This document shows positions 2,794 to 17,875 of a DNA stretch of 17,875 nucleotides, one piece after another; within the stretch, counting starts at the first letter, position 1, and each line of letters begins with the position of its first letter. Source of the stretch: a virus. Lineage: Duplodnaviria > Heunggongvirae > Uroviricota > Caudoviricetes. Both the position numbers and the translations under genes were made by a program. Under the pieces are notes generated by a model. The model was not told the DNA's origin, searched no databases, and was given only the letters and a program-made list of their open reading frames with translations. The stretch lies in IMG/VR virus record IMGVR_UViG_2617271049_000014. One strand, given 5' to 3'.

Positions 2794-5386
2794 TTGCATA
2801 TTCCTTAGCCCAGCGGGGCAGTGATAACGTCTTAATAGCTGGCCATTCATCGGTATTGAGGCAGTCAGCCAGGGTTCGCAGATTGCGGTGATATTCCAGC
2901 TGACCTGCCAGTTTTGCTTCTTCGCCCATCATGAAAATTTCAACCGGATAACGTCCGCATTCAATAGTTGTGCTGGCAACCAGAAAAACGAAAGTTGGCT
3001 GCACTCCAAACTGTGCTTCATAACCGTCACTGTAGAATGCATCCTGAACGTGATAGCGGTAGTCGTAATAAGCGGTTTTGAATCGTTGAATATCCGCCGT
3101 AGTTTTCACGTCCATGATCCAGTGAAATTCAGGGATAATTTTGTCCGGACGGCACCGACACAAAATTGCTGTTTCAGGATCTTCCCAGTAAATTGATGAT
3201 TCAGCGTGTCCGGCGCTTTCAACAAGCCATTGCCCCAGCGGCAAAGCCATAACGCTCTGATACATGAGTTCAATTTTCCGGCCTTCTTCGGCAGTGATAA
3301 CCGTTTTTCCTGTGCTTGCGCATTCCCTCAGAAACGCTTTCTCTTCTTCTTTTCCGGAGTTTGTCCGGCGGTTAAATTCAGGTGCTACGATAAAGCGGTT
3401 ACTGAATTCTTCCGGCTCAAGTACCCGGCAGTGGAAAGCGGTTCCTAAATCGAGCGTTTTTGTCTTTGTGGTGTCCACGGGGGCATTTTTACGCCACAAA
3501 TACAGTGCCGGAGTATCAGCAATGTCATCGAGCTGAGACTTACTGACACCGGGACCCGCGTGGTAATTCTCATTCGAAATTCCGTAATAAATACCTGGCT
3601 CTATGTCTTCTACGATTACGGGATCTGCGACTTCGCCAGTTTCATCACTGCAATCGCGATGCGGATCGCTGCCAGCATTCTCATTGTGCGGATGTTCAGC
3701 GCCTTCCATTTCCTCCGGATCATTTTCCTTAGCTTCAACCTGACTCTCTTCATCGAATGTTTCCTGGTATGTTGCGTCGCCCATCACCGCACCACAGTCA
3801 GGGCAGTTATCCCCGCCAGTCTGGCCGCAGGCATTGCAGGCTATTTCCGGTTCCTGTTGCACTACTGGCTCAGGTTGATTCATATCCGGGCTGGTTTTTT
3901 CCGTTTCTGGCTGGTTCTGGTACACACAATCGCGAGTCTGGATCCCCTTTACCCATTTCGGATCGTTCGGGTCGCTAATTCCGTCAACAAATTCACCACG
4001 TGATGCAGCAAGCAATTTATCGGCATCGACAGGATTTTTTGATGGAATGTTTTTCCGGGCTTCATGGAGTTCTGCCCGCAGTTCCTGATATTTCGCATCA
4101 ACAGAATTTACCTGTGACTGAGCATCCAGCGGCTGCGTGTCCTGATGATGTTCAGTTGCGTCCGGTTCCATTGTTTCAGCCTCTCCCTGTTCAACTGCCG
4201 TTGTTCCAGATGGTTGCGGTTTTTCTTCATCATCCTGTTTTCCTTCTTCTGTTACTCGCTGCGGCATCGGGGCAGAGGAGCGACCGCAGGCAATATCCAC
4301 GATTTCCGGATCAGGGTTGGCATGATCGGTTTCAGTCAGTACTTTGTTCAGATATTCAGTGACGTGCGCGGGGATGACCTCGATCCCAATTGGTGCTTCT
4401 TTTACGGACGCAACCACGATGGCGCGGGAATAATCCAGCCCGCCAGGCATGGTGATGAATTTGTCGCGGAAAACAGAAAAGGGCGGTTTATTTTCAGCGA
4501 TAATTTCCTCAATGCGTTTAGCGTGTGCCGGATGAAGGTTATAGATGTCCAGATCCATTGAACGGGCCAGTACGCCAGTGGCTACGTCCCGCGCCAGTGA
4601 CGTCAGATCGTGTACGAAACCTTCGCCGCGATCGGTGAGGTTTCCGCCGCCAGCATTAGCACCGGAAGCCGTGCGAGTGATGTGTGAAACACGATTACCC
4701 TTCATCCACTCTTTTGTCAGCAGTCCTCGATCGGTGTAGTCAGCGTTCAGGTATGCTTCGAAAAAAGCAGTTATCAGTCCCAGGTTTGAATTACCAGGAT
4801 TAGGGAAAACTTTGTCAGTGTCACGAACCAGTTTGTGGAGTTCGCGAATTTCCAGCGGGTCGAGCAGGCTGGTTTTGTGGGAAACAGCCAGGGCAGTAAC
4901 AGCCGGTAGTTCTTCAGCCCGAGCAATGTGTAATGCCTGGAGTCCGTCGCGTGAAACGTGCGTTACCGGTTTTTCGCTGCCGTGTTGAGCAAGCCAACGA
5001 ATGGGCAGTTCCTGGCCAGAAATTGGGAGTAGCATATTCTCCTCAATCTCAGTCATGTCTTCGCCGTTGACGTTGGTATTGCCTTGATAGTGAGCGTTGT
5101 CTGGTGCTGCTCCCGGTTTTAGTTCCCATGTCATGGAGTCTTTGCTGAGTTGATAGCGTTCACTCCAGGTAAAATCGATCTCACCTTCAGCGGGCAGGTC
5201 ATTAACGACAGGAAAATTCGTGGCAACAGCTTTAAAATAGCTGCTCAGTTTTTTACCTGACTTAACGATCAGGTAGTCCAGAGTGGCACAGGTCGATTCA
5301 AAATCGTTGCTTGCCCACAGGACGACGTCAGGTTCACCGGATGATTTTTTCGCTTTCCGTAACAGGAAGAGTGGTTTTGTGCTCAT
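2786..5386 (-). CDS. recE: Exodeoxyribonuclease VIII (RecE), 866 aa
   Basis: 866 aa ORF from ATG 5384-5386. Acidic, low-complexity N-terminal half and C-terminal nuclease domain; length and sequence consistent with Rac RecE. Coupled to recT. Confidence 0.9.
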
Positions 5387-5457
5387 TGTTTTTTAACCTC
5401 AACTCAGATTAAAATTCGTTTTGTTCAGTGAATGATCTTGCCGGATACACACTGTTC

Positions 5458-5482
5458 ATAGCCTGCGCCATACGCAGGCTAT
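5458..5482. other. Perfect inverted repeat (10 bp stem ATAGCCTGCG / CGCAGGCTAT, 5 nt loop) in the racC-recE intergenic region
   Basis: Read directly: atagcctgcg-ccata-cgcaggctat at 5458-5482, about 5 nt downstream of the racC stop (5488-5490) and about 75 nt upstream of the recE start. The minus-strand RNA has no U-tract after the stem. Confidence 0.5.
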
Positions 5483-5487
5483 TTCTT

Positions 5488-5763
5488 TCAGATTTCACCT
5501 TTTAATTTCATTGCAATTAGAGTTGCCAGAAATTCGGCTTTTTTTTCTGCGGGCAGATTCTTTCCGATATGCACCAGGCACATTTTTTTGACACCTTCAT
5601 CAAGTGTTTTTACGTTGCCTGATGGACCATCGATATCAACCACAGTGAATGGGGTTTCTTTATTTTCTGTTTTAATTACGTAGCCAATGCGCTTTCCTTC
5701 CAGATTCACCTCGTGAACAATGTCATCGGTAGTTACAACAGTGGCTTCATAATTGGTAATCAT
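5488..5763 (-). CDS. racC: RacC, small prophage protein, 91 aa
   Basis: ATG at 5761-5763 preceded by a strong RBS (AAGGAGAAAAAC-ATG). Product MITNYEATVVTTDDIVHEVNLEGKRIGYVIK.... The track ORF extends to an upstream ATG at 5811 that lacks an RBS. Confidence 0.8.
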   Translation of the reverse strand: MITNYEATVVTTDDIVHEVNLEGKRIGYVIKTENKETPFTVVDIDGPSGNVKTLDEGVKKMCLVHIGKNLPAEKKAEFLATLIAMKLKGEI

Positions 5764-5837
5764 GTTTTTCTCCTTAATTAAGGTTGAGCGAATACCTGCC
5801 ATTTCTGGCATAAATTCAGTTTCGAATAGTCAATTAA

Positions 5838-6008
5838 TTAAAGTTCATGTGCCATCTGGTCTTTTTCGGCACAAGCTTCACTGCAATATTTTCTCGGTTC
5901 GTCTTTTGATAAAATCCCGTGCATGAAGTGAAGCATTCTTTCAATAGCTTTGCTTTCTTCAACGTCTTTTTTGCAAAGGTGGTAAGCACATTTTATTTTC
6001 TTAGTCAT
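5838..6008 (-). CDS. ydaE: YdaE-like small Cys-rich (zinc-binding type) protein, 56 aa
   Basis: Manual translation from ATG 6006-6008: [56 protein letters not shown], stop TAA at 5838-5840. The start overlaps the kilR stop (ATGA). Below the ORF-track size cutoff. Confidence 0.7.
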   Translation of the reverse strand: MTKKIKCAYHLCKKDVEESKAIERMLHFMHGILSKDEPRKYCSEACAEKDQMAHEL

Positions 6009-6229
6009 CACCATGACTCCGCCTTTACAGGTAAACCATCACGACCGAGGAAGACTTTAATCATGCGGTCAGTAATGCATGTTTTTGTGGTCAGGTTACG
6101 AATATATAGTTTTCGCTTTTTAATATTGTTTGCCGAGGCAATATATGTCCGGCCTTCATGAAGAACATAATCGCCAGGAGTCACACACTGACGTGGTATT
6201 TCATCAGTTCCGAAGTGATGTGCAATCAT
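6008..6229 (-). CDS. kilR: KilR, FtsZ-targeting cell-division inhibitor of Rac, 73 aa
   Basis: ATG 6227-6229 with GGAG RBS. Product [46 protein letters not shown]... matches KilR as I recall it. The track ORF starts 4 codons further upstream. Confidence 0.8.
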
Positions 6230-6670
6230 AATTATCTCCATTTTTACAAATGAACTTTGTTGATGCGGTGCCTGGTGCCTCCAGGTGACTGCAACCAGTT
6301 AACAATTACAGTCGGCTTTCCCACCCAAACCAATAAGGACTAACATGACTTTTAACTGTGCCACGTGCGCTTAGCCGCATTCACCGCATCACAAAATTCA
6401 CTTTAAAAAGGGCGGACATCAGCCGAACTTCAAGAAAAAAACTGATGCCGCCAGGACTACACACAGCAATGTCGTTATTTACAACCGGAGGCGCACTCCC
6501 ACCATTTAAATTTAACAGACAAGACCGACTCTTTATGGATATCGGAAATGCGCCTTCGTGTTGTGCCCGGTTTTATTTCACCACCTCCGGGCTTCGGTGG
6601 TCTCGGCTATACCCCTACAGCGAGAGCTTGTGTTAACATTTCAATACCCTTACAGTTGAGAGTTATTGAT

Positions 6671-7159
6671 ATGTTGGATGTATTTACTCCATTGTTGAAA
6701 CTTTTTGCTAACGAGCCACTCGAAATACTTATGTATACGATTATCATTTTTGGTCTCACTCTCTGGCTGATACCGAAAGAGTTTACTGTCGCATTCAATG
6801 CTTATACTGAAATACCTTGGCTCTTTCAGATTATCGTTTTTGCCTTTTCTTTCGTGGTCGCCATTTCCTTCTCAAGATTGCGAGCACATATTCAAAAGCA
6901 TTATTCATTACTACCAGAGCAACGAGTATTGCTTCGTTTATCTGAGAAAGAAATCGCTGTATTTAAAGATTTCCTTAAAACAGGAAATCTTATTATCACT
7001 TCTCCTTGCCGTAACCCGGTTATGAAAAAATTAGAACGGAAGGGCATCATTCAACATCAGAGTGATAGCGCAAACTGTTCTTATTATCTCGTCACCGAAA
7101 AATACTCCCATTTTATGAAGTTATTCTGGAACAGCAGGAGTAGACGTTTTAATCGTTAG
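6671..7159 (+). CDS. sieB: Superinfection-exclusion protein SieB (membrane protein), 162 aa
   Basis: ATG 6671 (MLDVFTPLLKLFANEPLEILMYTIIIFGLTLWLIPKEF...) with two hydrophobic segments and SieB-like length. The track ORF start at 6548 is an unsupported upstream extension. Confidence 0.8.
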   Translation: MLDVFTPLLKLFANEPLEILMYTIIIFGLTLWLIPKEFTVAFNAYTEIPWLFQIIVFAFSFVVAISFSRLRAHIQKHYSLLPEQRVLLRLSEKEIAVFKDFLKTGNLIITSPCRNPVMKKLERKGIIQHQSDSANCSYYLVTEKYSHFMKLFWNSRSRRFNR

Positions 7160-7311
7160 CTTACTGTGTGCTTCTCCAACCATCGGCGCGCACCAGTTTC
7201 GGTTTTAAATGTTTTGCTTTTGGTATACGTCATGGCAGTGAACGTTCCATCCTGGTTGGGGAACACGCCGCACACCAGGGATTCGTTGTTGCCGAGGTCG
7301 ATTTTTTGCAT
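7156..7311 (-). CDS. ydaF: YdaF-like small prophage protein, 51 aa
   Basis: Manual translation from ATG 7309-7311: MQKIDLGNNESLVCGVFPNQDGTFTAMTYTKSKTFKTETGARRWLEKHTVS, stop TAA at 7156-7158. Convergent 4-nt overlap with the sieB stop. The 51 aa length matches what I recall for K-12 ydaF. Below the ORF-track cutoff. Confidence 0.55.
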   Translation of the reverse strand: MQKIDLGNNESLVCGVFPNQDGTFTAMTYTKSKTFKTETGARRWLEKHTVS

Positions 7312-7321
7312 TTTGCGAATC

Positions 7322-7456
7322 TCACATCTTGTTGCTGTGTATAGCGACTTCTGCCTGCCAGAGATCCCAGTCGTTGCTGCGTAAAGCCTGCACAGCCTGG
7401 TTGTAAGTGATACCGCAACAATCCATCAAATACTGAACTACTTCGTAATGCACCAT
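7322..7456 (-). CDS. ydaG: YdaG-like small prophage protein, 44 aa
   Basis: ATG 7454-7456 preceded by GGGGAGAGATAAG. Product MVHYEVVQYLMDCCGITYNQAVQALRSNDWDLWQAEVAIHSNKM. The track ORF begins at an upstream GTG. First gene downstream of the putative leftward promoter. Confidence 0.6.
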   Translation of the reverse strand: MVHYEVVQYLMDCCGITYNQAVQALRSNDWDLWQAEVAIHSNKM

Positions 7457-7624
7457 CTTATCTCTCCCCTTAACGCCGGGTGGCGGAACTGAAACCTGCT
7501 GCACTGCAAAATCTGAACCCTGCCGTCATGTTCATACGCCTCGGGCTGGCTACTTAACCCCTGACCACTGCCTGGTAACTCGAAGTATTGCCCTGCGTTC
7601 TGTGGGGCGGGGTGGGTTGGTAGG

Positions 7625-7680
7625 TATATAATGTACTTTGTGTTCATTGATGTAAAGTACTTTAAGTACATTTTGTGTGT
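7625..7680 (-). promoter_or_regulatory. Putative leftward early promoter (pL-like) with overlapping operator repeats (oL-like)
   Basis: On the minus strand: -35 TTTACA (plus 7651-7656), 17-nt spacer, -10 CATTAT (plus 7628-7633). ATGTACTT at 7631-7638, the 10-bp palindrome AAAGTACTTT at 7655-7664 and AAGTACAT at 7665-7672 overlap the -35 and -10 elements. Confidence 0.45.
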
Positions 7681-7746
7681 AAAAAAATGAGATGGGATAA
7701 AGTGAAGCACAAACCCGGAGGGGGACGCTACCGGATTTATGCTGGT

Positions 7747-8166
7747 TTAAGAGGCTTTTTGTTTTTTCTTTCGTGCTAGCTCTTCGTAAATTGCATTGTA
7801 CTTCTGTTTTTTCTCCTCAAGAGTTTTTAAAAGTTCATCTGTCTCACTGTCAGGGAGCTCGTCCAGAAGGTCAATGATGATTTTTTGTCTTGGATTTAAC
7901 TCCTGATAGAAACGTACCTGTCCACTTTCTTCTGTATCCTCTCCCAAAAGATAGGTTGGTGTTGTTCCAATGAGTGTTGCTAATTCCCTTAATTTCTCTC
8001 GGCGAGGAATTGTTTCGCCATTAAACCATTTGCTAACCGCTTTTGGTGTTAATTTCATTCGACGGGCAATTTCTGCCTGCCTTCCATGTTGTTCATAACC
8101 AGCGTTTTCACAGGCTAGCGCAAGCCTACTGGCGAACTCTTTACGCGCTTTATCTTCATGAACCAT
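7747..8166 (-). CDS. racR: Prophage repressor (RacR-like), N-terminal HTH, no LexA-like peptidase domain, 139 aa
   Basis: ATG 8164-8166. HTH-like segment QAEIARRMKLTPKAVSKWFNG. Divergent from the Cro-like gene across an ~80 bp operator region. The C-terminus is charged and coiled-coil-like (ELARKKKQKAS). Confidence 0.7.
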   Translation of the reverse strand: MVHEDKARKEFASRLALACENAGYEQHGRQAEIARRMKLTPKAVSKWFNGETIPRREKLRELATLIGTTPTYLLGEDTEESGQVRFYQELNPRQKIIIDLLDELPDSETDELLKTLEEKKQKYNAIYEELARKKKQKAS

Positions 8167-8245
8167 AAGTTCAATGATATTCGCTCTTGAATGTACTGTC
8201 AGTTCTGTTATAGCATGTACTCAAAGTTCACATTGTGAGGGTGAT
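8167..8245. promoter_or_regulatory. Divergent promoter/operator region (oR-like) between the repressor and the Cro-like gene
   Basis: Rightward -35 TTGAAT (8187-8192) and -10 TATAGC (8209-8214), spacer 16. ATGTACT occurs at 8191-8197 and 8215-8221, overlapping those elements; the same heptamer recurs in the oL-like region. Confidence 0.5.
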
Positions 8246-8500
8246 ATGAACCAGAAAACACTTGAAGATGTAATCAAAACTGTTCGCGTTTCTGTTGTGG
8301 CCGACGTTTGTGGTGTCAGCCAAAGAGCAATCTACAAATGGATGGATAACGGAAAATTGCCTCGCACAGAATATACCGGCGAAACAAATTACGCTGAAAA
8401 AATCGCTCATGCATCAAACGGATTATTTTCTGCTGATGTAATTTTAACTATTGGCAGAAATAAAACTACTACGAAAAAGCTGATGGGAGTTGATTCATGA
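8246..8500 (+). CDS. ydaS: Cro/XRE-like small HTH protein (YdaS-like), 84 aa from the ATG at 8246
   Basis: ATG 8246 preceded by GAGGGTGAT. HTH-like VSQRAIYKWMDNGKLP. The track start at 8174 lies only 8 nt from the racR start, leaving no room for a promoter. Stop overlaps the ydaT start (ATGA). Confidence 0.65.
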   Translation: MNQKTLEDVIKTVRVSVVADVCGVSQRAIYKWMDNGKLPRTEYTGETNYAEKIAHASNGLFSADVILTIGRNKTTTKKLMGVDS

Positions 8501-8919
8501 AAATCAAGCATGAGCACATCGAGTCAGTGTTGTTAGCCCTGGCAGCCGAAAAAGGGCAGGCATGGGTAGCCAATGCCATTACTGAAGAATATCTGCGCCA
8601 GGGGGGCGGCGAATTGCCCCTGGTACCAGGCAAGGACTGGAATAATCAGCAGAATATCTATCACCGTTGGTTGAAAGGTGAAACGAAAACGCAAAGAGAA
8701 AAAATTCAGAAGCTGATCCCAGCAATTCTGGCAATCCTTCCGCGCGAGCTGCGTCACCGACTCTGCATCTTCGATACCCTGGAACGCCGTGCATTACTGG
8801 CGGCGCAGGAAGCGTTAAGTACGGCAATTGATGCGCATGATGATGCAGTCCAAGCCGTTTACCGGAAAGCGCATTTCAGCGGCGGCGGGTCTTCCGACGA
8901 TTCTGTCATTGTTCATTAA
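8497..8919 (+). CDS. ydaT: YdaT-like prophage protein, 140 aa
   Basis: ATG 8497 coupled to ydaS. Product MKIKHEHIESVLLALAAEKGQAWVANAITEEYLRQGG...; length matches the 140 aa I recall for Rac YdaT. Confidence 0.75.
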   Translation: MKIKHEHIESVLLALAAEKGQAWVANAITEEYLRQGGGELPLVPGKDWNNQQNIYHRWLKGETKTQREKIQKLIPAILAILPRELRHRLCIFDTLERRALLAAQEALSTAIDAHDDAVQAVYRKAHFSGGGSSDDSVIVH

Positions 8920-8931
8920 GCAAAAGTTTCC

Positions 8932-9684
8932 ATGCTGTTTGTGCTTATTCTAAGCCACCGGGCAGCATCATACGGGGCAATTATGGCCGCATTACCATAC
9001 ATGCAACTGTACATAGCTGATTACCTGGCTGACACCATGCATTTGTCAGCAGAGGAGCATGGTGCGTATTTGTTGCTGATGTTCAATTACTGGCAAACAG
9101 GAAAGCCAATACCTAAAAACAGGCTGGCAAAAATTGCCCGTCTGACTAACGAGCGATGGGCTGATGTTGAACCATCCTTGCAGGAGTTTTTTTGCGATAA
9201 CGGCGAGGAATGGGTGCATCTTCGGATTGAGGAAGATCTGGCATCAGTCAGGGAAAAATTAACCAAAAAATCAGCCGCAGGAAAAGCATCTGTTCAGGCC
9301 AGAAGAAGCAGAAAGGAAGCAGATGTTCAAACAAAACAAGAGAGAAATTTAACAGGTGTTCAAACAGATGTTGAAGTGGTGTTTGAACATGATGTCAACA
9401 CAAAGGCAACTAATAAAGATACAGATAAAGATCTAAAAACAGATCCCCCCCTAAATCCCCCCCGGGGGAATCGAGGTGTCAAAAAGTTTGACCCTCTGGA
9501 TATTGCTTTGCCGAACTGGATTTCTGTCTCGCTTTGGCGTGAGTGGGTTGAATTTCGCCAGGCATTGCGAAAACCGATTCGAACGGAGCAGGGCGCTAAC
9601 GGGGCGATACGGGAGCTGGAAAAATTCCGCCAGCAGGGTTTTTCACCTGAGCAGGTGATTCGACACAGCATCGCCAATGAATAA
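8932..9684 (+). CDS. ydaU: YdaU-like replication-region protein (DUF1376-like N-terminus); start ambiguous (ATG 8932 or ATG 8983, MAALPYMQLY...)
   Basis: N-terminal motif YIADYLADTMHLSAEEHGAYLLLMFNYW. The ORF ends at 9684, shorter than the 285 aa I recall for K-12. Contains two C7 homopolymer tracts at 9445-9463. Confidence 0.65.
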   Translation: MLFVLILSHRAASYGAIMAALPYMQLYIADYLADTMHLSAEEHGAYLLLMFNYWQTGKPIPKNRLAKIARLTNERWADVEPSLQEFFCDNGEEWVHLRIEEDLASVREKLTKKSAAGKASVQARRSRKEADVQTKQERNLTGVQTDVEVVFEHDVNTKATNKDTDKDLKTDPPLNPPRGNRGVKKFDPLDIALPNWISVSLWREWVEFRQALRKPIRTEQGANGAIRELEKFRQQGFSPEQVIRHSIANE

Positions 9685-9812
9685 GAGCCTCAACGTGATG
9701 CTATGCCGACCTGCTCCCTGAGAATTCACACAGAAGGCTGCTAGCAATGTCTGCAGATCGCTCAAAGCGGACTAAAATGTTGGCTTGTTTCTGACTTAGA
9801 GCATTTAAGGAA

Positions 9813-10037
9813 GTGCTGGTGGTGACTGGTTGTTGTGTTCCATTTCTACAGAATAAAATCACAGAAACTATACCCAATAGTTGTATTGAATCACTGACGA
9901 GACAGCCTCATATTTATCAGGACTGGTGTGCGTCTAATACAGGGGGTTGTCGTGCTGGTTCTCAAATGTGCGCTGGCTATTGCGGCTGTAATGGCAATTT
10001 ATTGTCTTGCTGTTGTTCTTATGGAGCGGCTTTCTGA
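9813..10037 (+). CDS. Hypothetical Cys-rich small protein (12 Cys in about 72 aa); speculative
   Basis: ORF with GTG starts at 9813 and 9819; AGGAAG at 9806-9811 gives a 7-nt spacer to GTG 9819. Product ...CCVPFLQNK...CIESL...WCASNTGGCRAGSQMCAGYCGCNGNLLSCCCSYGAAF. No recognised family. Confidence 0.2.
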   Translation: MLVVTGCCVPFLQNKITETIPNSCIESLTRQPHIYQDWCASNTGGCRAGSQMCAGYCGCNGNLLSCCCSYGAAF

Positions 10038-10196
10038 TTGATTACATACTGGCTAGAAAAAAGGTGTTACCTTGGTTTATCTTTGTCCGGCAAGGTGCGC
10101 TCATTAATCTTAAGTAAATTTATTGCTCAAGTATTCAGATTACTTCTTATGGTTGAAGTCTCCTGTCAATGTAGAACCAATATATTTACAAAAATG

Positions 10197-10226
10197 AGAC
10201 CCGTCGGGGATAGCCCTGCCGGGTCT
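10197..10226 (-). terminator. Rho-independent terminator for the minus-strand DUF1971-like gene
   Basis: Stem AGACCCG (10197-10203) pairs with CGGGTCT (10220-10226), with an inner GGG/CCC extension. On the minus strand the hairpin is followed by CAUUUUUGUAAAUAU. It lies about 30 nt downstream of the stop at 10256-10258. Confidence 0.5.
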
Positions 10227-10255
10227 GACTGTTAAAGCATTTTTAATATGATCAT

Positions 10256-10594
10256 CTATTTTTTGGTGCTATAGACTTTTTCGCCCGAAAAGTCTGGAGC
10301 GACCCAAAAGTTAATATTAAACTGAGCATCATCGCTTAGTTCAACACGGTGCCAGTATTGTGGTGGGCTTGTTGCAAAAGCGCCAGCATTAATGACTACT
10401 TTTATCTCCGGTTCAGTAGCATTCTCATCAGTAAAACCATAATATGTTACAGTGCCTTCCATTACGCACAACTGCCCAAAAATACCTGCTGCTGTATTAT
10501 GATGTGTTAATAACGCTGAAGGTACGTTCTCTTTTGTGAAGAACGGAGTTGAGCGTTTGATTACCCAATCTTTAGGAATTCTCTTGTGTGTCAT
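10256..10594 (-). CDS. DUF1971 (YeaR / TehB N-terminal domain-like) small protein, 112 aa
   Basis: ATG 10592-10594 preceded by a strong RBS (GGAGGAGGTGGTT-ATG). Motifs RSTPFF...HHNTAAGIFGQLCVMEGTVTYYGF...EP...INAGAFATSPPQYWHRVE...DDAQFNINFWVAP fit the DUF1971 pattern as I recall it. Opposite orientation to the flanking phage genes. Confidence 0.5.
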   Translation of the reverse strand: MTHKRIPKDWVIKRSTPFFTKENVPSALLTHHNTAAGIFGQLCVMEGTVTYYGFTDENATEPEIKVVINAGAFATSPPQYWHRVELSDDAQFNINFWVAPDFSGEKVYSTKK

Positions 10595-11407
10595 AACCAC
10601 CTCCTCCAAAACATGCATTAAAAATGCATCTTTTGGAGGGTTATGTCAAGCTGTTATGAAACACATAATTGATATGTTGATTAGAGGAGAAGATAGAATA
10701 AATATGGTTGTTTTTCGTATAACTATTTGTTTTACTTTTAGTTTATGCATTCTGTGTGTTAGGAATAAGTTATTAAAGTTTAATCAAAAAATCTCGATGT
10801 AGTCCACATAGATTACTGTTACTGAACCTTATTGTGTGTATTAGTTGTGTTCTGAAATTTCAGCTTAATTATTTATGATGTATTTTTTAACGATAAATAT
10901 TTTCCCAGGATACCTTTACTGTGTATATAAATAAATTATATACGCATAAATAATGTAAAGGCGTCCTTTTAGATATATCTTATCAAATGTTAATGACTTG
11001 AGTGGGAAATATGATTCCAGCAACTTATCATGTGGCTACTTTATAAAAATAATGCCCATATAAAACAACAAGCGAAAAGGATTACGGATAAAAAAGGAGC
11101 GAGATGTGCGAACTTGTTATTTTCCATGTTTAACCACCTTAAATAATTGATGATGACGGGATGATTGCATCTGTAATGCTTTTATTGAAATGTTATGATA
11201 AAAAAGAACTTTTGCATAACATTAAAATGTAATTTATCTAATCGTTTTTAATAATAAGTGTCGTATTTCTATCCTTGTACCAGCTATTTGATATGTAGTG
11301 TTTGTTCATGCTATGTGGGGCTTTACACCATAGCCAGTTTATTTATACTTTATTCGTCAGCCTGAACAACTGGCATCTGCTGCGCTGCGCCATCGAGAGA
11401 TTGAGAA

Positions 11408-12007
11408 ATGGCGCATATACAACTGGTCAAACAAACCTCTTCTGGTTTACTTCTCCCGGCGACGCCGGAGAGTTGCGATTTTCTGCATCAAATCAAAATA
11501 GGTGAGTGGATACACGCAGACTTTAAGCGTGTGCGTAACTACGCATTCCACAAGCGTTTTTTCAAACTCCTGCAACTGGGATTCGATTACTGGACTCCGG
11601 TCGGTGGGGCGATCACGCCTCGCGAACGAGAACTGCTGTCTGGTTTCGTTGATTACCTGTGCGAATCAGTTGGTCGGGAACACACGCCAGCCCTGAGTGA
11701 TGCCGCAGAGCAATACCTTAACACCGTTGCGACTCGTAGAACCCGGGATACGGCGTTGCTAAAGTCGTTTGAGGCTTTCCGCGAGTGGGTAACCATTCAG
11801 GCCGGATTTTACACCGAGCATATTTATCCGGACGGTAGCCGTGGGCGTCGGGCAAAATCCATCGCTTTTGCGAATATGGACGAAGTCGAGTTTCAGCAGG
11901 TTTATAAATCTGTACTGAATGTGCTGTGGAACTGGATTCTGTTCCGTAAATTCTCCTCTCAGGAGGAAGTTGAAAATGTGGCCGCACAACTACTGGAGTT
12001 TGCGTAA
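11408..12007 (+). CDS. Phage nin-region protein (DUF1367-like), 199 aa
   Basis: ATG 11408 with GAGAG upstream. Stop overlaps the next start (TAATG). The family call is from position and recollection only. Confidence 0.5.
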   Translation: MAHIQLVKQTSSGLLLPATPESCDFLHQIKIGEWIHADFKRVRNYAFHKRFFKLLQLGFDYWTPVGGAITPRERELLSGFVDYLCESVGREHTPALSDAAEQYLNTVATRRTRDTALLKSFEAFREWVTIQAGFYTEHIYPDGSRGRRAKSIAFANMDEVEFQQVYKSVLNVLWNWILFRKFSSQEEVENVAAQLLEFA

Positions 12008-12297
12008 TGGTGAATTTACGTAAAGCGGCTAAAGGCCAGATGTGCCAGATCAGAATCCCTGGCTACTGCAATCACAATCCCGAAACCTCTGTGCTGGCGC
12101 ATTACAGGCTGGCGGGGACGTGCGGAACAGCGACAAAACCACATGATATGCAGGCGGCGATAGCCTGTAGCTCATGCCACGATCTAATCGACGGGCGGGT
12201 AAAAACCAGCGATTACACCAAAGAAGAATTGCGCCTGATGCATGCTGAAGGGGTTTTTCGCACACAAGAAATCTGGAGAAAGAAAGGTCATTTATGA
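12007..12297 (+). CDS. ybcO: YbcO-like (DUF1364) zinc-binding nin-region nuclease, 96 aa
   Basis: Motif KGQMCQIRIPGYCNHNPETSVLAHYRLAG.CGT.TKP.D...IACSSCHD matches the Cys/His pattern of YbcO as I recall it. Translationally coupled on both sides (TAATG and ATGA overlaps). Confidence 0.7.
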   Translation: MVNLRKAAKGQMCQIRIPGYCNHNPETSVLAHYRLAGTCGTATKPHDMQAAIACSSCHDLIDGRVKTSDYTKEELRLMHAEGVFRTQEIWRKKGHL

Positions 12298-12836
12298 TTT
12301 ACCCAACGAATACAGGAAAAAGCGGAGAACACCTTCGCCTCACCACGCTGGAAAGTGTCTGGATTCAGGGAAAACTACGTATGTGGGGGCGCTGGTCGTA
12401 TATTGGCGGTGGCAGGTCAGGGAATATGTTCAATCAGTTGTTGGCATCCAAAAAACTGACGAAAACAGCCATTAATGAAGCCCTGCGCAGAATGAAAAAA
12501 GCGGGAATAGAGAAAGCTGAGCTGGAAGCGTTTTTGCGAGAGATGATCAACGGCAAGCAAAAGAGCTGGCTGGCGCATTGTACTGATGCAGAGGCGTTAT
12601 GTATTGATCGAGTCATAAGTGAGGTGCTGGCAGAGCATCCAGGATTGATTTGCATTCTCCGGCAACGCTATGAAGGGCGGGGGATGACTAAGCGCAAAAT
12701 GGCTGAATTGCTAAATGATGCACACCCAGAGTGGTGTTTTAGCACATGCGAAAAACGGATTGCTAATTGGTTAGCTGTTGCTGAGTATGCCCTATATATT
12801 CCCATGCGTGAATCATTTGCTGAGAAAATGGCTTGA
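12294..12836 (+). CDS. Putative late-gene antiterminator (Q-like), 180 aa
   Basis: Last gene of the nin-like operon, immediately upstream of a promoter-like region and a strong terminator, and upstream of the lysis cassette. Cys/His pairs (C...H...C..C) are compatible with a zinc-binding Q protein. Assignment is mainly positional. Confidence 0.5.
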   Translation: MIYPTNTGKSGEHLRLTTLESVWIQGKLRMWGRWSYIGGGRSGNMFNQLLASKKLTKTAINEALRRMKKAGIEKAELEAFLREMINGKQKSWLAHCTDAEALCIDRVISEVLAEHPGLICILRQRYEGRGMTKRKMAELLNDAHPEWCFSTCEKRIANWLAVAEYALYIPMRESFAEKMA

Positions 12837-12916
12837 TTTCTTACGTATAAACTGCTTCAATTTTGCTATGCTTCGCAAAGCTGTATCGCGAGGCGGATTG
12901 CAGACATGGACATCGT
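12837..12916 (+). promoter_or_regulatory. Candidate late promoter region (PR'-like, with Q-binding element) between the Q-like gene and the first terminator
   Basis: Positional inference. TATAAA at 12846-12851 and TTGCTA at 12863-12868 are present, but I cannot assign a confident -35/-10 pair. Confidence 0.3.
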
Positions 12917-12943
12917 AAAAAAACCGCTTAATGCGGTTTTTTT
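12917..12943 (+). terminator. Rho-independent terminator (tR'-like), potentially bidirectional
   Basis: AAAAAAACCGC-TTAAT-GCGGTTTTTTT: a GC stem flanked by an A7 run upstream and a T7 run downstream. Confidence 0.6.
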
Positions 12944-13263
12944 ACGTCAGGAAAGCAGGGGAGAATGCTGCTAGTTGGGCAACTGGTCTTTCTGCTCCAA
13001 ATTATAACAGAGACCAGTTATAGTTTCGGTGCTGTGTTTTTTTTACAATATTGTGATAACACATTGCTGGCGGGAGTTTTGATATTTCTTGGCAGGGGCT
13101 GATGATGCGTTATCCTGATGTCGTCAACTCATATAAAATGAGATGAGAGATCATTGCAGGGTGGTTTGTAATTCGCTGTTTAGCGGGACAATATGTTGTC
13201 TGATACAAGACACCCGACGCCTCAGATTACTATAATAAAGACGAAGCATCCTTTGTATTGACC

Positions 13264-13289
13264 AACCGCCTGTTTAGGCGGTTCTTTTT
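13264..13289 (+). terminator. Rho-independent terminator
   Basis: AACCGCC-TGTTTA-GGCGGTT followed by CTTTTT. No large ORF lies upstream (12944-13263). Confidence 0.55.
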
Positions 13290-13821
13290 GGGCTGGTTTA
13301 TTGTATGCCAAATGATTATTAAAAAGGTTGTGTTAATAACAAAATCCGAAATAATATGCCTGCATATTTTTATCTTGCTTATATTCTGCATATTGTGCAT
13401 AGCAGGCTCATCCCTGCAATCAAAACTGTATGATGAGTATTTTTTGTTTTCCTTTTTTCCAGTCATCTGATGATGACCTGCTTCTTTTTAATCCGGATCG
13501 ACATCAGTTTTTTAAGATAATTCCTGCGAGTTATATGCATAAATGCCACAAACTCCGCATTTTATGTGGTTGGGAGTTGCCGGGCGCGCAGTGAGTTTGC
13601 TAAGAAAACTCCTGCATGGTGAATCCCCCTGTGCGGTGGGGTGATACCATTAACCTTTTCTGTCGCCGACAGGTATCACGAACATTTTGTTCACCGGGAG
13701 GCACCCGGCACCATGCACTTCAATAGATTCTCTCCACATTATGGATATTCTTTCAGAATATCCCACGCAGACTTTGTGTAAATGTTAACAAATGTGCGTT
13801 TTATTTGATCTGATTCGCTGT

Positions 13822-13850
13822 TTGAGCGTCCAAAACAACGGTATATATAA
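13822..13850 (+). promoter_or_regulatory. Sigma-70-like promoter for the lipoprotein cassette
   Basis: -35 TTGAGC (13822-13827), 17-nt spacer, consensus -10 TATAAT (13845-13850), about 30 nt upstream of ATG 13881. Confidence 0.4.
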
Positions 13851-13880
13851 TCCTTTACTATATGACATATGTGAGGAAAA

Positions 13881-14309
13881 ATGGGTTTTCGTAGCGCATC
13901 AATTCTTACGTTGATTATTAGTGGGATTATTATCGGGTGCACTGATGCTGTATCGACAAATTATCATGACCGTACATCATATTACTCCGATAAAGCAATA
14001 GAGACACAGTATGTGAGTTCATCTGAACGTACTTCTGATGTTAGTGAGGATATCCGTCTGTATGCCCATCAAATCAAGAGCGCCATCGAAAAACAGTTCG
14101 GGGATGCGAGTAAGTATTCAGGAAAAGAGTGTACACTGAGAATGCATATGGCCCCGAATGGCCTTCTACTGGAGGTTAAAAGAGAAAGTGGAGACCTCGA
14201 TTTATGTCGTGAAGCGATGAATGCGATAAAGAATGCTGATATACCTGCCCCCCCTTCGCCGGAAGTATATAAAGTATTTCAAAATGGGGTGCTGGATTTT
14301 AAACCCTGA
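13881..14309 (+). CDS. Outer-membrane-type lipoprotein with a C-terminal TolA domain III-like domain, 142 aa
   Basis: ATG 13881 with GAGGA RBS. Signal peptide and lipobox IIGC followed by Thr at +2. The C-terminal ~85 aa (YAHQIKSAIEKQFGDASKYSGKECTLRMHMAPNGLLLEVK...DLCREAMNAIKNADIPAPPSPEVYKVFQNGVLDFKP) resembles the TolA C-terminal domain as I recall it, including the terminal LDFKP. Confidence 0.75.
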   Translation: MGFRSASILTLIISGIIIGCTDAVSTNYHDRTSYYSDKAIETQYVSSSERTSDVSEDIRLYAHQIKSAIEKQFGDASKYSGKECTLRMHMAPNGLLLEVKRESGDLDLCREAMNAIKNADIPAPPSPEVYKVFQNGVLDFKP

Positions 14310-14459
14310 TATTTATTGTTTTGTAATAAACGGTTTCGGCTTAGGTTTGTTCTGACACAGCTACGGCACTGAGCTAAATTTAGCGGATAGTCAGCTCTGA
14401 GCCAGTGGCGGACGTAACAACTACTATTGCTGAGATTTTAATGGATTGAGGAGCAAGAA

Positions 14460-14855
14460 GTGGGATTAAAGAAAATCGTTATGTTGACTTTTTGGGTCGG
14501 TTTTGTTGCGGGATGCACACCTTTACACCCTTCAGATTGCCACAAAACTACTGCTACAGGTAGTTGCAGTTCAGGACGCTGGGATGATCAGGATGAATGG
14601 GGGGCGCAAGCGCGGGGAATCAGAGCTGCAATTAATGCCAAACTTGATGAGCCGCATAACTGGAAAGGGAAAAAATGCAGGTTGCATATGGAATTCTCTC
14701 AGGATGGCACGGCGTTAAAAATATCTACCAGTAACGGTGATAAAGCCTATTGCGAAGCGATAAAGTCCGCAGCTCATAAAGCCAAATTTCCGGCCTTCAA
14801 CAATCCGGAAGTCTACAGAGATTTTCAGAAATCTGGCTTTGACATGCGAGGTTAG
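14460..14855 (+). CDS. Second lipoprotein, paralogous to the first in its TolA domain III-like C-terminal domain, 131 aa
   Basis: GTG 14460 with GAGGAG RBS at a 6-nt spacer (alternative ATG at 14481). Signal peptide and lipobox VAGC, Thr at +2. C-terminal region GIRAAINAKL...GKKCRLHMEFSQDGTALKIS...GDKAYCEAIKSAAHKAKFPAFNNPEVYRDF aligns with the first lipoprotein (GKxCxL, DGxxLxI, GDxxxC, NPEVY/SPEVY). Confidence 0.7.
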   Translation: MGLKKIVMLTFWVGFVAGCTPLHPSDCHKTTATGSCSSGRWDDQDEWGAQARGIRAAINAKLDEPHNWKGKKCRLHMEFSQDGTALKISTSNGDKAYCEAIKSAAHKAKFPAFNNPEVYRDFQKSGFDMRG

Positions 14856-14980
14856 CTCTTCAATTACTATATCTCATTCATAGCAAACTGACAGATTTGA
14901 TGATGTTCTATATACGAAACCTGTGATGTCAAGTCTGAGCTAATACAAATAAACATAATATCAGAGAAATACATTTTATT

Positions 14981-15004
14981 AGCTCGCTACGGCGAGCTTT
15001 TTAT
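14981..15004 (+). terminator. Rho-independent terminator closing the lipoprotein cassette
   Basis: AGCTCGC-TACG-GCGAGCT followed by TTTTTA, about 125 nt after the stop of the second lipoprotein and about 100 nt before the holin start. Confidence 0.6.
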
Positions 15005-15106
15005 ATTGCATCGTCTCCAGCATATATATCAATTAAGGCTCTGATTGATGTGTCTGAAAGCCTACACATAATAACTATGCCATCCGTTCCGTGCGGAGGT
15101 GAGGCT

Positions 15107-15322
15107 ATGAAATCCATGGACAAAATTTCAACAGGCATTGCCTACGGCACCTCCGCAGGCAGTGCTGGCTACTGGTTTTTACAGTTGCTCGATAGAGTAA
15201 CTCCGTCACAGTGGGCTGCAATCGGTGTGCTGGGTAGTCTGGTATTTGGCCTGCTGACGTACCTGACAAACCTTTATTTCAAGATTAAAGAAGATAAGCG
15301 CAAGGCTGCGAGAGGTGAATAA
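15107..15322 (+). CDS. essD: Phage 21-type class II holin / pinholin (S21/EssD-like) with dual-start motif, 71 aa (68 aa from Met4)
   Basis: [71 protein letters not shown]: two TMDs and the Met1-Lys2-Ser3-Met4 dual start. RBS GGAGGTGAGG. The track ORF extends to 15050. Stop overlaps the endolysin start (TAATG). Confidence 0.8.
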
Positions 15323-15819
15323 TGCCTCCATCATTACGAAAAGTCGTTGCTGCTGCTATTGGTGGCGGAGCAATTGCTATAGCATCAGTGTTAATCACTG
15401 GCCCAAGTGGTAACGATGGTCTGGAAGGTGTCAGCTACATACCATACAAAGATATTGTTGGTGTATGGACTGTATGTCACGGGCATACAGGAAAAGACAT
15501 CATGCTCGGTAAAACGTATACCAAAGCAGAATGCAAAGCACTCTTGAATAAAGACCTTGCCACTGTCGCCAGACAAATTAACCCGTACATCAAAGTCGAT
15601 ATACCGGAAACAACGCGCGGCGCTCTTTACTCATTCGTTTACAACGTGGGTGCTGGCAATTTCAGAACATCGACGCTTCTTCGCAAAATAAACCAGGGCG
15701 ATATCAAAGGCGCATGTGATCAGCTACGTCGCTGGACATATGCTGGCGGTAAGCAATGGAAAGGTCTCATGACTCGTCGTGAGATTGAGCGTGAAATCTG
15801 TTTGTGGGGTCAGCAATGA
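15322..15819 (+). CDS. rrrD: SAR endolysin (phage 21 R-type lysozyme, RrrD-like), 165 aa
   Basis: N-terminal Gly/Ala-rich signal-anchor-release segment ([20 protein letters not shown]) followed by a T4-lysozyme-like domain. Coupled to the holin and to Rz. Confidence 0.85.
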
Positions 15820-16280
15820 ACAGAGTAACCGCGATTATCTCCGCTCTGGTTATCTGCATCATCGTCTGCCTGTCATGGGCTGTTAATCATTACCGTGATA
15901 ACGCCATTACCTACAAAGCCCAGCGCGACAAAAATGTCAGAGAACTGAAGCTGGCGAACGCGGCAATTACTGACATGCAGATGCGTCAGCGTGATGTTGC
16001 TGCGCTCGATGCAAAATACACGAAGGAGTTAGCTGATGCGAAAGCTGAAAATGATGCTCTGCGTGATGATGTTGCCGCTGGTCGTCGTCGGTTGCACATC
16101 AAAGCAGTCTGTCAGTCAGTGCGTGAAGCCACCACCGCCTCCGGCGTGGATAATGCAGCCTCCCCCCGACTGGCAGACACCGCTGAACGGGATTATTTCA
16201 CCCTCCGGGAACGACTGGTAATGATGCAGGCCCAACTTGAAGGTGCTCAGCAATACATAACCGAGCAGTGTTTAAAGTAA
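15816..16280 (+). CDS. rzpD: Rz-like inner-membrane spanin subunit, 154 aa
   Basis: ATG 15816 overlapping the endolysin stop (ATGA). N-terminal TMD ([20 protein letters not shown]) followed by a coiled-coil periplasmic domain. The track ORF starts at an upstream GTG. Confidence 0.8.
16036..16221 (+). CDS. rzoD: Rz1-like outer-membrane lipoprotein spanin subunit embedded in the +1 frame of Rz, 61 aa
   Basis: ATG 16036 with AAGGAG RBS (7-nt spacer). Lipobox VVGC, then a proline-rich mature region ([18 protein letters not shown]). Entirely inside the Rz gene, as is typical. Confidence 0.75.
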
Positions 16281-16417
16281 AATCTTAACTACAATATGAT
16301 TCATTTTGATGATTGTTTCATAAGGAACAGTGAAGTAAGATCTAAGAGGAGTTAAATTTTATACAGTATAATCATAATATTGCAGCAAGGTGGTTATAAT
16401 TGAAAGAATATTTAGAT

Positions 16418-17875
16418 ATGAATACATCTCATGTAAGAGTTGTTACTCATATGTGTGGGTTCCTGGTTTGGCTCTATAGTCTTTCAATGTTGCCACCAAT
16501 GGTTGTAGCATTGTTTTATAAAGAAAAAAGCCTGTTCGTTTTCTTTATAACTTTCGTTATATTTTTTTGCATTGGTGGCGGAGCGTGGTATACAACTAAG
16601 AAATCTGGCATTCAATTACGTACCCGTGATGGGTTTATTATAATTGTAATGTTTTGGATTTTGTTTTCTGTTATTAGTGCATTCCCTTTATGGATTGACT
16701 CAGAACTTAATTTAACGTTCATTGATGCTCTGTTTGAAGGGGTTTCTGGAATAACAACAACAGGAGCAACTGTAATTGATGATGTTAGTTCATTACCTCG
16801 GGCATATTTGTACTATCGGTCACAGTTAAATTTTATAGGTGGTTTAGGAGTTATTGTTCTGGCGGTTGCAGTATTGCCATTATTGGGTATTGGTGGTGCA
16901 AAGCTTTATCAGTCAGAAATGCCGGGGCCATTTAAGGATGACAAACTCACTCCCCGCCTGGCCGATACGTCACGGACACTGTGGATAACTTATTCTTTAT
17001 TAGGTATTGCTTGTATTGTCTGTTATAGACTTGCAGGAATGCCTTTGTTTGATGCTATTTGTCACGGGATTTCCACAGTTTCGCTTGGTGGTTTCTCAAC
17101 TCATAGCGAGAGTATCGGATATTTTAATAACTATTTGGTTGAGCTGGTGGCTGGTTCTTTTTCCCTGCTATCGGCTTTCAACTTCACTCTTTGGTATATT
17201 GTTATTAGCAGAAAAACGATAAAACCTTTAATCAGAGATATTGAACTTCGTTTCTTTCTGTTAATAGCCTTAGGGGTGATCATTGTTACCTCTTTCCAGG
17301 TCTGGCATATAGGTATGTATGACTTGCATGGAAGTTTTATTCATTCGTTTTTTCTTGCCAGCTCCATGCTCACTGATAATGGTTTAGCTACGCAGGATTA
17401 TGCAAACTGGCCCACGCACACGATAGTGTTTTTGCTGTTGTCAAGTTTCTTTGGGGGATGTATAGGTTCAACCTGTGGTGGAATTAAGTCACTTCGATTT
17501 CTTATACTTTTCAAACAAAGCAAACACGAGATAAATCAGCTTTCTCATCCCAGAGCGTTGTTGAGTGTAAATGTAGGAGGGAAGATAGTTACAGATCGTG
17601 TAATGAGGTCTGTATGGAGTTTCTTTTTTCTTTATACTCTCTTCACGGTGTTTTTTATACTGGTGTTAAATGGTATGGGATATGATTTTCTTACATCATT
17701 TGCAACAGTGGCTGCATGTATTAATAATATGGGATTAGGTTTTGGGGCTACTGCATCGTCATTCGGAGTGCTTAATGACATTGCAAAATATTTAATGTGC
17801 ATAGCTATGATTCTTGGTCGCCTTGAAATTTATCCTGTTATTATATTGTTTTCAGGTTTTTTTTGGCGCTCCTAA
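16418..17875 (+). CDS. trkG: TrkG potassium uptake transporter (TrkH family), 485 aa
   Basis: Polytopic membrane protein from ATG 16418 (MNTSHVRVVTHMCGFLVWLYSL...); the track ORF begins at an upstream TTG. AT-rich codon usage. Stop TAA at 17873-17875 is the window end. Confidence 0.9.
   Translation: MNTSHVRVVTHMCGFLVWLYSLSMLPPMVVALFYKEKSLFVFFITFVIFFCIGGGAWYTTKKSGIQLRTRDGFIIIVMFWILFSVISAFPLWIDSELNLTFIDALFEGVSGITTTGATVIDDVSSLPRAYLYYRSQLNFIGGLGVIVLAVAVLPLLGIGGAKLYQSEMPGPFKDDKLTPRLADTSRTLWITYSLLGIACIVCYRLAGMPLFDAICHGISTVSLGGFSTHSESIGYFNNYLVELVAGSFSLLSAFNFTLWYIVISRKTIKPLIRDIELRFFLLIALGVIIVTSFQVWHIGMYDLHGSFIHSFFLASSMLTDNGLATQDYANWPTHTIVFLLLSSFFGGCIGSTCGGIKSLRFLILFKQSKHEINQLSHPRALLSVNVGGKIVTDRVMRSVWSFFFLYTLFTVFFILVLNGMGYDFLTSFATVAACINNMGLGFGATASSFGVLNDIAKYLMCIAMILGRLEIYPVIILFSGFFWRS

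Follow-up and report, generated by a model that had tools for sequence, protein, structure and literature searches.

Two short predicted lipoproteins with a TolA domain III fold in a Rac-like Escherichia coli prophage: candidate co-receptor decoys

Between the Q-like gene and the holin gene of a tailed-phage sequence filed as IMG/VR record IMGVR_UViG_2617271049_000014 lie two small genes whose products, here called P1 and P2, each join a lipoprotein signal to a copy of the third, C-terminal domain of TolA (TolA-III). The record is treated as one window of 17,875 nt and, by its alignment with a sequenced relative, the element from which it derives is a Rac-like prophage of Escherichia coli. Our favoured reading, to which we assign a probability of roughly 0.45, is that the two proteins act as outer-membrane-tethered, unenergised TolA-III co-receptor decoys; P1 makes the better case of the two.

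As we picture it, the region would be lysogenic-conversion cargo made up of two independently acquired genes. Each protein would leave the cytoplasm, probably receive its lipid at Cys20 (P1) or Cys19 (P2) and end up on the inner face of the outer membrane, from which its TolA-III copy would hang on a tether of 30-35 residues with neither an inner-membrane anchor nor, unlike TolA, a link to the TolQR motor. The ligands expected to dock there would be the N1 domain of filamentous-phage g3p, the translocation domains of TolA-binding colicins, and the TolB N-terminus displayed by E-type colicins. Beta-strand addition would fasten such entry domains to the tethered copy, an unenergised dead end, and the lysogen would become tolerant. 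A promoter-like site ahead of P1 would drive expression in the lysogen, and a terminator behind P2 would keep that transcription off the holin gene.

Domain, fold and export signals

P1 is a 142-residue open reading frame (ORF) at 13881-14309 on the plus strand, with an ATG start preceded by a Shine-Dalgarno-like GAGGA (13873-13877, plus strand). P2, a 131-residue ORF at 14460-14855 on the same strand, starts with GTG, and a Shine-Dalgarno GAGGAG stands 6 nt upstream of it (14448-14453, plus strand); both ribosome-binding sites are read from the sequence. The P1 protein opens with MGFRSASILTLIISGIIIGC, followed by T, and is divided into a signal peptide (residues 1-19), a tether modelled at low confidence (21-54) and a TolA-III domain (55-142, encoded by 14043-14306). 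From its GTG, P2 reads MGLKKIVMLTFWVGFVAGC, again followed by T, and consists of a signal peptide (1-18), a Cys-rich N-terminal motif (20-49) and a TolA-III domain (50-131).

By profile score, both proteins are members of the TolA_C domain family, but they are not TolA. The profile of the TolA C-terminal domain, PF06519, has a gathering cut-off of 25 bits and gives 82.6 bits with P1 (E=2e-23, residues 49-140 on profile positions 4-96 of 96) and 54.6 bits with P2 (E=1e-14), while phmmer run against the PDB sequences matched TolA chains only (E=5e-28 for P1 and 5e-9 for P2). Residues 55-142 of P1 align with residues 334-421 of E. coli TolA, ungapped to the last residue, and 52 of the 88 positions are identical (59%); the P2 domain is 34% identical to TolA and 32% to P1. 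An initial annotation of this DNA, made from the letters alone, had proposed the TolA-III resemblance on the strength of short motifs. These scores bear it out, and all the motifs it quoted are present in P1, namely QIKSAIE, CTLR, APNGLLL, IPAPPS, VYKVF and the terminal LDFKP.

The structural superposition that had been suggested as a check gave the same answer as the profile search. AlphaFold2 (AF2) models of P1 and P2 have a confidence score (pLDDT) above 90 across the domains, and Foldseek superposed P1 on 2X9A_B with a template-modelling (TM) score of 0.94 and a root-mean-square deviation (rmsd) of 0.6 Å, and P2 on 3QDP with a TM score of 0.92 and an rmsd of 1.1 Å. The P1 model lies nearest to the g3p-bound TolA conformers 2X9A and 1TOL (rmsd 0.6-0.7 Å). 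Both proteins have the three helices and three strands of TolA-III (E. coli TolA 334-421; 3QDP, 1TOL, 2X9A, 1S62) in the order alpha-beta-beta-alpha-alpha-beta, and the equivalents of the Cys363-Cys388 pair are kept. P1 ends where TolA ends, P2 stops two residues short, and strand beta3 is retained in both. Over the signal peptides and N-terminal tethers, including the P2 motif, the models have pLDDT below 50 and offer no structural clue.

The export signals described in the initial annotation are likewise present at the same ORF coordinates. The lipoboxes, IIGC at residues 17-20 of P1 (Cys20, with Thr21 at +2) and VAGC at residues 16-19 of P2 (Cys19, with Thr20 at +2), agree with the pattern [LVI][ASTVI][GAS]C and follow a basic n-region and a hydrophobic core. 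The residue after the lipobox Cys sets the sorting of a lipoprotein, and Thr at this position, which is not Asp, predicts the outer membrane. Since neither protein has Asp at +2, both are predicted to be sorted there. Across P1 variants down to 65% identity the Gly-Cys-Thr of the lipobox never changes; among P2 relatives its Cys is likewise invariant, and the preceding Gly nearly so. The mature N-terminus of P2 (residues 19-49, 14514-14606) reads CxPLHPSxCHKTTATGSCSSGRWDDQDEWG, with two extra Cys, and is largely invariant, 27 of the 30 positions of the motif being at least 90% identical across genera.

The models for TolA proper set both proteins apart from it. The equivalog NF007065 gives 107.8 bits with P1 and 53.7 with P2 against a cut-off of 213, and TIGR02794, with a cut-off of 59.45, is passed by P1 (75.6) but only over positions 265-362 of 362, and failed by P2 (47.2). 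The transmembrane anchor of TolA domain I and the helical domain II are missing, a lipoprotein signal stands in their place, and the neighbours are phage genes, not tolQRA-tolB-pal. As the genes lie outside the tolQRAB-pal operon, their products could not be energised by TolQR. PHROG 5772 matches the two proteins end to end (1.6e-62 and 6.7e-65), and its entry reads 'unknown function'. RefSeq already records the domain in P2 (WP_001348108.1, 'cell envelope integrity TolA C-terminal domain-containing protein'), again with a domain name and no role. The domain-level annotation is thus already known, but the phenomenon reaches well beyond this one cassette. The initial annotation was aware of no characterised system of this kind, and the literature agrees, in that no published characterisation of such proteins was found in open-access papers and preprints (subscription journals lay outside the scope).

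Automatic annotation treats P1 quite differently. In hundreds of E. coli genomes PGAP/RefSeq annotates only its 3' part, as 'tolA, incomplete, missing N-terminus', and calls it a pseudogene; in the prophage of strain SCU-316, for example, the feature at 16550-16810 of the locus (L001) corresponds to 14049-14309 of the window. For P2, PGAP chooses an internal ATG at 14481, which drops the Lys-Lys n-region. Taken at face value, the pseudogene flag implies decaying, functionless tolA fragments, an idea that we regard as having next to no chance of being right. The flag arises because the full-length TolA equivalog models match over no more than the last ~95 positions of the models themselves. The P1 ORF is intact and has a start codon, a ribosome-binding site and a lipoprotein signal of its own, it is 99-100% conserved in ~780 genomes, and its lipobox is invariant as described above. 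The ratio of nonsynonymous to synonymous substitution (dN/dS) falls between 0.09 and 0.34 in the P1 domain and between 0.06 and 0.09 in P2; by this measure both genes are under purifying selection and functional. Given such selection on P1, its pseudogene call is an artefact, and the internal start of P2 looks like an annotation artefact as well. Whatever the function, then, P1 is mislabelled as a tolA pseudogene in hundreds of RefSeq genomes.

Origin and distribution of the two families

The two genes had initially been described as paralogues forming a single self-contained cassette, and here the initial annotation did not stand. To judge from identity and gene order, the pair is composite: two families, each mobile on its own, meet only in this prophage lineage. 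An origin by tandem duplication was considered and ruled out because the domains share only 32% identity, P1 resembles TolA (59%) more than it does P2, and each gene is found by itself in other places. Among 5426 complete E. coli genomes, P1-type DNA was found in 888, P2-type DNA in 1269, and the whole 1.9-kb region (at least 80% covered) in 768. Copies at 99% identity or above number 782 for P1 and 784 for P2 in this set, and the near-equality of these counts indicates that such copies are essentially always together. In 50,697 sequenced phage records, only mEp460_ev081 carries either gene; it has the same cassette block behind a different Q gene. Relatives are encoded by 145 viral contigs of IMG/VR, and 80 kept of these 145 are 99-100% identical to P1.

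P1 travels within a defined block of DNA. The segment 13504-14310, which ends at the P1 stop codon and takes in both the promoter-like site and a small-RNA element upstream of it, recurs at 94% identity in other lambdoid prophages that have no P2. A survey of the position between Q and holin in such prophages, another suggestion of the initial annotation, did find P1 relatives there, unaccompanied by P2. A variant with 66% identity to P1 (L015/L017, 4566-5429) stands alone in Stx-phage-like prophages, 3' of two tRNA genes and 5' of a nanS-p-type esterase gene (DUF1737/SASA), DUF1378, DUF826 and the holin genes, in the slot that is held by the stx genes in Stx phages; in L015 two strong terminators follow it. 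An AraC-type regulator gene and a TfpB-family gene lie just upstream of this variant. All told, P1 is present in at least three lambdoid backgrounds, and its relatives in the homologue search are confined to E. coli and Shigella. Independently of what the proteins do, the stx position of lambdoid prophages can hold TolA-III lipoprotein cargo.

The P2 family is much larger, with at least 370 clusters at 90% identity. Its DNA homology to chromosomal and plasmid relatives is limited to 14425-14856 and, starting as it does at 14425, covers only the ORF and its ribosome-binding site. Relatives occur as single chromosomal genes in Enterobacter, in the order btuE-P2-ridA, and in Citrobacter. In genomes labelled Serratia (L007/L008, 6001-8736) a P2 homologue lies 3' of nrdDG and directly before genes for GmrSD_N and HEPN (MAE_28990/RiboL-PSP) proteins and, by these neighbours, is on the edge of a defence-type island. 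Among E. coli plasmids there are 525 P2-type copies at ~88% identity. This plasmid type stands 68 bp 3' of a nikB-type relaxase gene and before trbC/trbABC on conjugative plasmids of the IncK2/Z type (MPF_I, MOBP; L024 and L026), and pO157 of strain EC4115 has a P2-type gene (L023, 8964-9395; 88% amino acid identity) beside a truncated relaxase gene and near toxB.

A third family extends the picture to Klebsiella. Its member is a 144-residue protein with the lipobox LITAC and a TolA-III domain ending in ALDFRL, and it occurs in ~310 PLSDB plasmid records, mostly of Klebsiella IncFIB/IncFII plasmids (MPF_F). In K. pneumoniae pMR0617ctx, for example (L025, 4217-5246), the gene is immediately 3' of a thioredoxin-like (PF13098) gene.

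These plasmid locations raise the question of a role linked to conjugation, mainly for P2, either by excluding incoming transfer or by slackening the envelope locally where the type IV secretion machine sits. The P2-like gene that follows the relaxase gene and adjoins trbABC on IncK2/Z-type plasmids would suit such a role, as would the place of the Klebsiella IncF version beside its thioredoxin-like gene. Nevertheless, we consider it improbable. The classical IncI1 plasmid pESBL passes from nikB directly to trbC and transfers without such a gene between them (PMC4288162), pO157 retains its copy next to a relaxase gene that is truncated, and no transfer genes lie near the copies on prophages and chromosomes.

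An exhaustive HMMER search with P1 against 1.84 billion cluster representatives returned 333 matches at E<=1e-3. Among the best 146 new representatives, 84 are 175 residues or shorter; at least 41 of these 84 pass a strict lipobox test, more do so by eye, and a few have ordinary signal peptides. The short proteins come from Serratia, Kosakonia and Klebsiella and are named automatically as "TolA" or "colicin import membrane protein". By these counts, short TolA-III lipoproteins are a wider, unrecognised class that runs to dozens of clusters. A tentative extension of the decoy reading would make tethered TolA-III copies widespread co-receptor decoys of prophages, IncK/Z and IncF plasmids and chromosomal islands throughout the Enterobacterales, with the present cassette stacking two specificities. 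A class of this kind would trap entry domains in an unenergised complex and so would shield both the host and a pilus-bearing plasmid from Tol-dependent filamentous phages and group A bacteriocins.

Binding surfaces, expression and proposed roles

Conjugative pili are the attachment sites of TolA-dependent filamentous phages, and one of these phages, IF1, is specific for I-type conjugative pili. TolA-III is the IF1 co-receptor, and the g3p of IF1 has been crystallised with it (PDB 2X9A). The presence of relatives on conjugative plasmids is therefore the strongest new circumstantial support for the decoy reading; further circumstantial support comes from the retention of beta3 and from the one chromosomal P2 homologue that adjoins a GmrSD/HEPN pair.

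Much is known about how TolA-III is recognised. Its edge strand beta3 (A415-K420) takes up a strand from g3p-N1, from colicin N (ColN) and from the TolB N-terminus (PMC4339652, PMC3365938, PMC7391070), and this binding depends critically on backbone hydrogen bonds at D418 and K420 (PMC4339652). Colicins N and A bind TolA directly, and colicin A adds its strand to beta2 instead, at 375-LLDIKP-380, with cation-pi contacts to K368, K379 and K396 (PMC4339652, PMC3365938, PMC7391070). The beta3 sequence APLDFKP of TolA is GVLDFKP in P1 and SGFDMRG in P2, and the colicin A box LLDIKP is LLEVKR in P1 and ALKIST in P2. K368 is replaced by His in P1 and Glu in P2, K379 is Lys in P1 and Ser in P2, and K396 is Lys in P1 and His in P2. 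Colicins K and E1 also bind TolA directly.

The surface used by TolB has fared differently from beta3. Y353 of TolA (Y352 in the older numbering) has been linked to TolB binding (PMC2707214); it is Gly in P1 and Asp in P2, a loss that would fit a decoy that avoids titrating TolB. In a comparison of 68 short homologues with 58 true TolAs, beta3 is at least as conserved in the former (F419 0.88 and D418 0.66, against 0.34 for D418 in the TolAs), and the end of helix 1 (348-353) is far less so, conservation of Y353 falling from 0.71 to 0.28; the sample is biased, because the short homologues were hits picked by similarity to P1. TolA-III binds g3p-N1 and ColN at ~1 µM and TolB at ~40 µM (PMC4339652), a difference that favours selective trapping. 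This ~40-fold higher ligand affinity, together with the lost Tyr, would limit self-harm. A direct contact of TolA-III with Pal, which the initial annotation had taken as given, is disputed in the field (PMC7391070).

A free, exported TolA-III domain is already known to interfere with these systems. In the 1993 work of Levengood-Freyermuth, such a domain reportedly gave tolerance to colicins E1, E2, E3 and A. Its effect on Tol functions is dominant, and cells that export it leak periplasmic proteins (PMC6195910, citing Levengood-Freyermuth 1993 and Wan & Baneyx 1998). That domain was a soluble, overexpressed, wild-type laboratory construct, whereas P1 and P2 are natural, predicted to be lipid-anchored, diverged, and carried by mobile elements.

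The closest natural parallels are functional. Cor (phi80/N15/mEp), Llp (T5), TraT (F) and Bor (lambda) are small outer-membrane lipoproteins encoded by mobile elements, and they block entry from the inner side of that membrane; Cor and Llp do so by plugging the receptor FhuA. P1 and P2 are likewise small predicted lipoproteins carried as mobile-element cargo and, by analogy, would functionally resemble these exclusion and tolerance lipoproteins. They have no homology to Cor, Llp or TraT, since Pfam and PHROG scans of both proteins returned TolA-type families only, and imitating a periplasmic co-receptor, as proposed here, differs from receptor plugging and has not been described for Cor, Llp, TraT or Bor. 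If the reading is right, mobile elements would shield their hosts by periplasmic co-receptor mimicry as well as by receptor masking (Cor, Llp) and repressor immunity. Such mimicry could help to explain strain differences in sensitivity to colicins and filamentous phages, and it bears on conjugative plasmids and on the pilus-specific phages proposed as anti-plasmid agents.

The architecture of the region, as far as it can be read from consensus matches, has the look of a moron and counts for decoy cargo. A sigma-70-like promoter site, TTGAGC-18-TATAAT (13822-13851, plus strand; a consensus match only, at 10 of 12 positions), precedes P1 and is identical in mEp460_ev081. The initial annotation had recognised this site, though it set the TATAAT one base too early, at 13845-13850 in place of 13846-13851. 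An intrinsic terminator, also noted before, separates the cassette from the holin gene (14981-15003, plus strand): a 7-bp G+C-rich stem at 14981-14998 is followed by TTTTT, with a folding energy of -13 kcal/mol and z=-2.5. Such a terminator is to be expected if transcription in the lysogen starts upstream and must spare the lysis genes. The G+C content is 0.40-0.46 across the cassette against ~0.51 in the upstream genes. A promoter-like site at the level of consensus, a terminator, lower G+C, several phage backgrounds and, in mEp460_ev081, a different Q gene are thus all seen. Between P1 and P2 there is no terminator and no strong promoter; a second promoter for P2 was rejected, the only match being a weak one (9 of 12) at 14352-14380, and for these reasons P2 is treated as probably co-transcribed with P1.

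The same stretch of DNA can be read in favour of a late function. A candidate late promoter, AAGACA-18-TATAAT (13207-13236, plus strand; a consensus match only), is followed after 28 nt by an 8-bp G+C-rich hairpin with a T-run (13264-13290, plus strand), and 13207-13290 as a whole could be an analogue of pR'/tR', in which a late promoter feeds a short terminated leader and on which the DUF1133 Q-like protein might act. Lying 3' of this element and between the Q-like gene and the holin gene, the cassette might be expressed late, under Q, with the holin, endolysin and spanins, and the proteins might sabotage Tol-Pal: competition for the TolB N-terminus would loosen the link between outer membrane and wall, aiding lysis, virion release or the shedding of vesicles. 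In keeping with this, exported TolA-III makes E. coli leak periplasmic proteins (PMC6195910), and mutations in TolA beta3 that block TolB binding produce a tol phenotype (PMC4339652), beta3 being kept in P1 and P2. We think it unlikely all the same. The window already has a complete set of pinholin, SAR-endolysin, Rz and Rz1; a terminator parts the cassette from the holin gene and a promoter-like site stands ahead of it; P2 relatives occur on chromosomes and plasmids that have no lysis genes. The TolB-linked Tyr is not conserved, and the affinity of TolA for TolB is so weak that sabotage would need high protein levels.

A role in envelope physiology that has nothing to do with defence is also unlikely, in our estimate, though it accounts for some facts rather well. 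As TolA-III paralogues anchored in the outer membrane, the proteins would bind TolB, CpoB or another periplasmic partner and tune Pal mobilisation, vesiculation or stress tolerance to the advantage of the host, and the prophage would carry them as fitness cargo. P2 relatives are single genes at fixed loci, under strong purifying selection, in Enterobacter (btuE-P2-ridA) and Citrobacter, the invariant N-terminal motif of P2 suggests a dedicated partner, and the dozens of short TolA-III lipoprotein clusters spread across the Enterobacterales (Kosakonia, Serratia, Klebsiella) fit as well. Set against these, the loci vary by genus and many copies are on prophages or conjugative plasmids, a pattern typical of accessory conflict genes, and to our knowledge E. 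coli K-12 manages without any such gene.

Several observations weigh against the decoy reading itself. Its promoter is a consensus match that does not hold up in every variant: a prophage with a 91% variant of P1 (L019) has a weaker -10, TGTAAT, and with the 66% variant of L015 the site is not conserved. The cassette lies inside the presumed late transcript and so may be made mainly in lytic growth. With no more than 34% identity to TolA, and with neither the colicin A box nor the cation-pi lysines, P2 makes a much weaker case for mimicry than P1. The strongest constraint in P2 falls on its N-terminal motif (dN/dS ~0.02), above that on the TolA-like domain, and the decoy model leaves this motif unexplained. 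The stable chromosomal P2 genes of Enterobacter and Citrobacter could indicate a housekeeping envelope role. A decoy that bound TolB could be costly because the outer membrane would become leaky. Finally, no PADLOC-DB v2 model matched P1, P2 or the Q-like protein at E<=0.01.

Prophage context and neighbouring genes

Over its right-hand third, 11651-17875, the window shares 99.7% identity with a Rac-type prophage of E. coli SCU-316. BLAST matches between the two are confined to 3281-7622, 8491-9683 and 11651-17875; this distribution in three blocks ruled out the idea that the window is collinear with the SCU-316 prophage and hence carries its iteA/iteS defence genes, and the same comparison found no iteA/iteS in the window. 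The immunity region (7622-8491) and the segment before DUF1367 (9684-11650) are unlike SCU-316. The SCU-316 counterpart of the latter carries iteA/iteS and an IS3-family insertion, and in the window it is other sequence with a 120-residue minus-strand ORF at 10256-10618. These differences reflect mosaicism among Rac-type prophages that are otherwise 99% identical.

Upstream of the cassette are genes for DUF1367, YbcO and DUF1133 proteins. The last of these is the Q-like gene (12294-12836, plus strand), a borderline match to Phage_antitermQ at 26.1 bits against a cut-off of 26. Downstream come a P21-type holin gene resembling essD, the first gene of the lysis cassette (15107-15322, plus strand), then lysozyme, Rz with embedded Rz1, and trkG. 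The placement between a Q-like gene and the holin in the initial annotation is therefore correct.

The interval of ~1 kb between the Q-like gene and P1 has no long ORFs. It holds an STnc100-family prophage small-RNA element (13584-13770, plus strand; Rfam RF02076, 86.6 bits against a gathering score of 47), which lies directly 5' of the promoter-like site and is part of the mobile P1 block. The STnc100 family has been tied to PasD small RNAs near Q genes (2026 preprint, 10.64898/2026.05.13.724894). In the prophage L019, which has P1 only, four STnc100 copies flank the gene (2589-2802, 4704-4877, 5599-5803 and 5854-6061), which suggests that these repeats may serve as recombination joints for the exchange of cargo between Q and the holin. 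Just 3' of the Q-like gene, two weak isrK-like Rfam matches fall on opposite strands at 12870-12998; at ~20-22 bits they are under the gathering score of 50, and a hairpin is a likelier source than an isrK homologue.

In the lysis cassette, the Rz1-type Pro-rich lipoprotein is encoded at 16036-16221, out of frame inside the Rz gene (15804-16280). After the lysis cassette comes trkG, within 16400-17875, with a markedly low G+C content (0.34-0.42), as in K-12 Rac.

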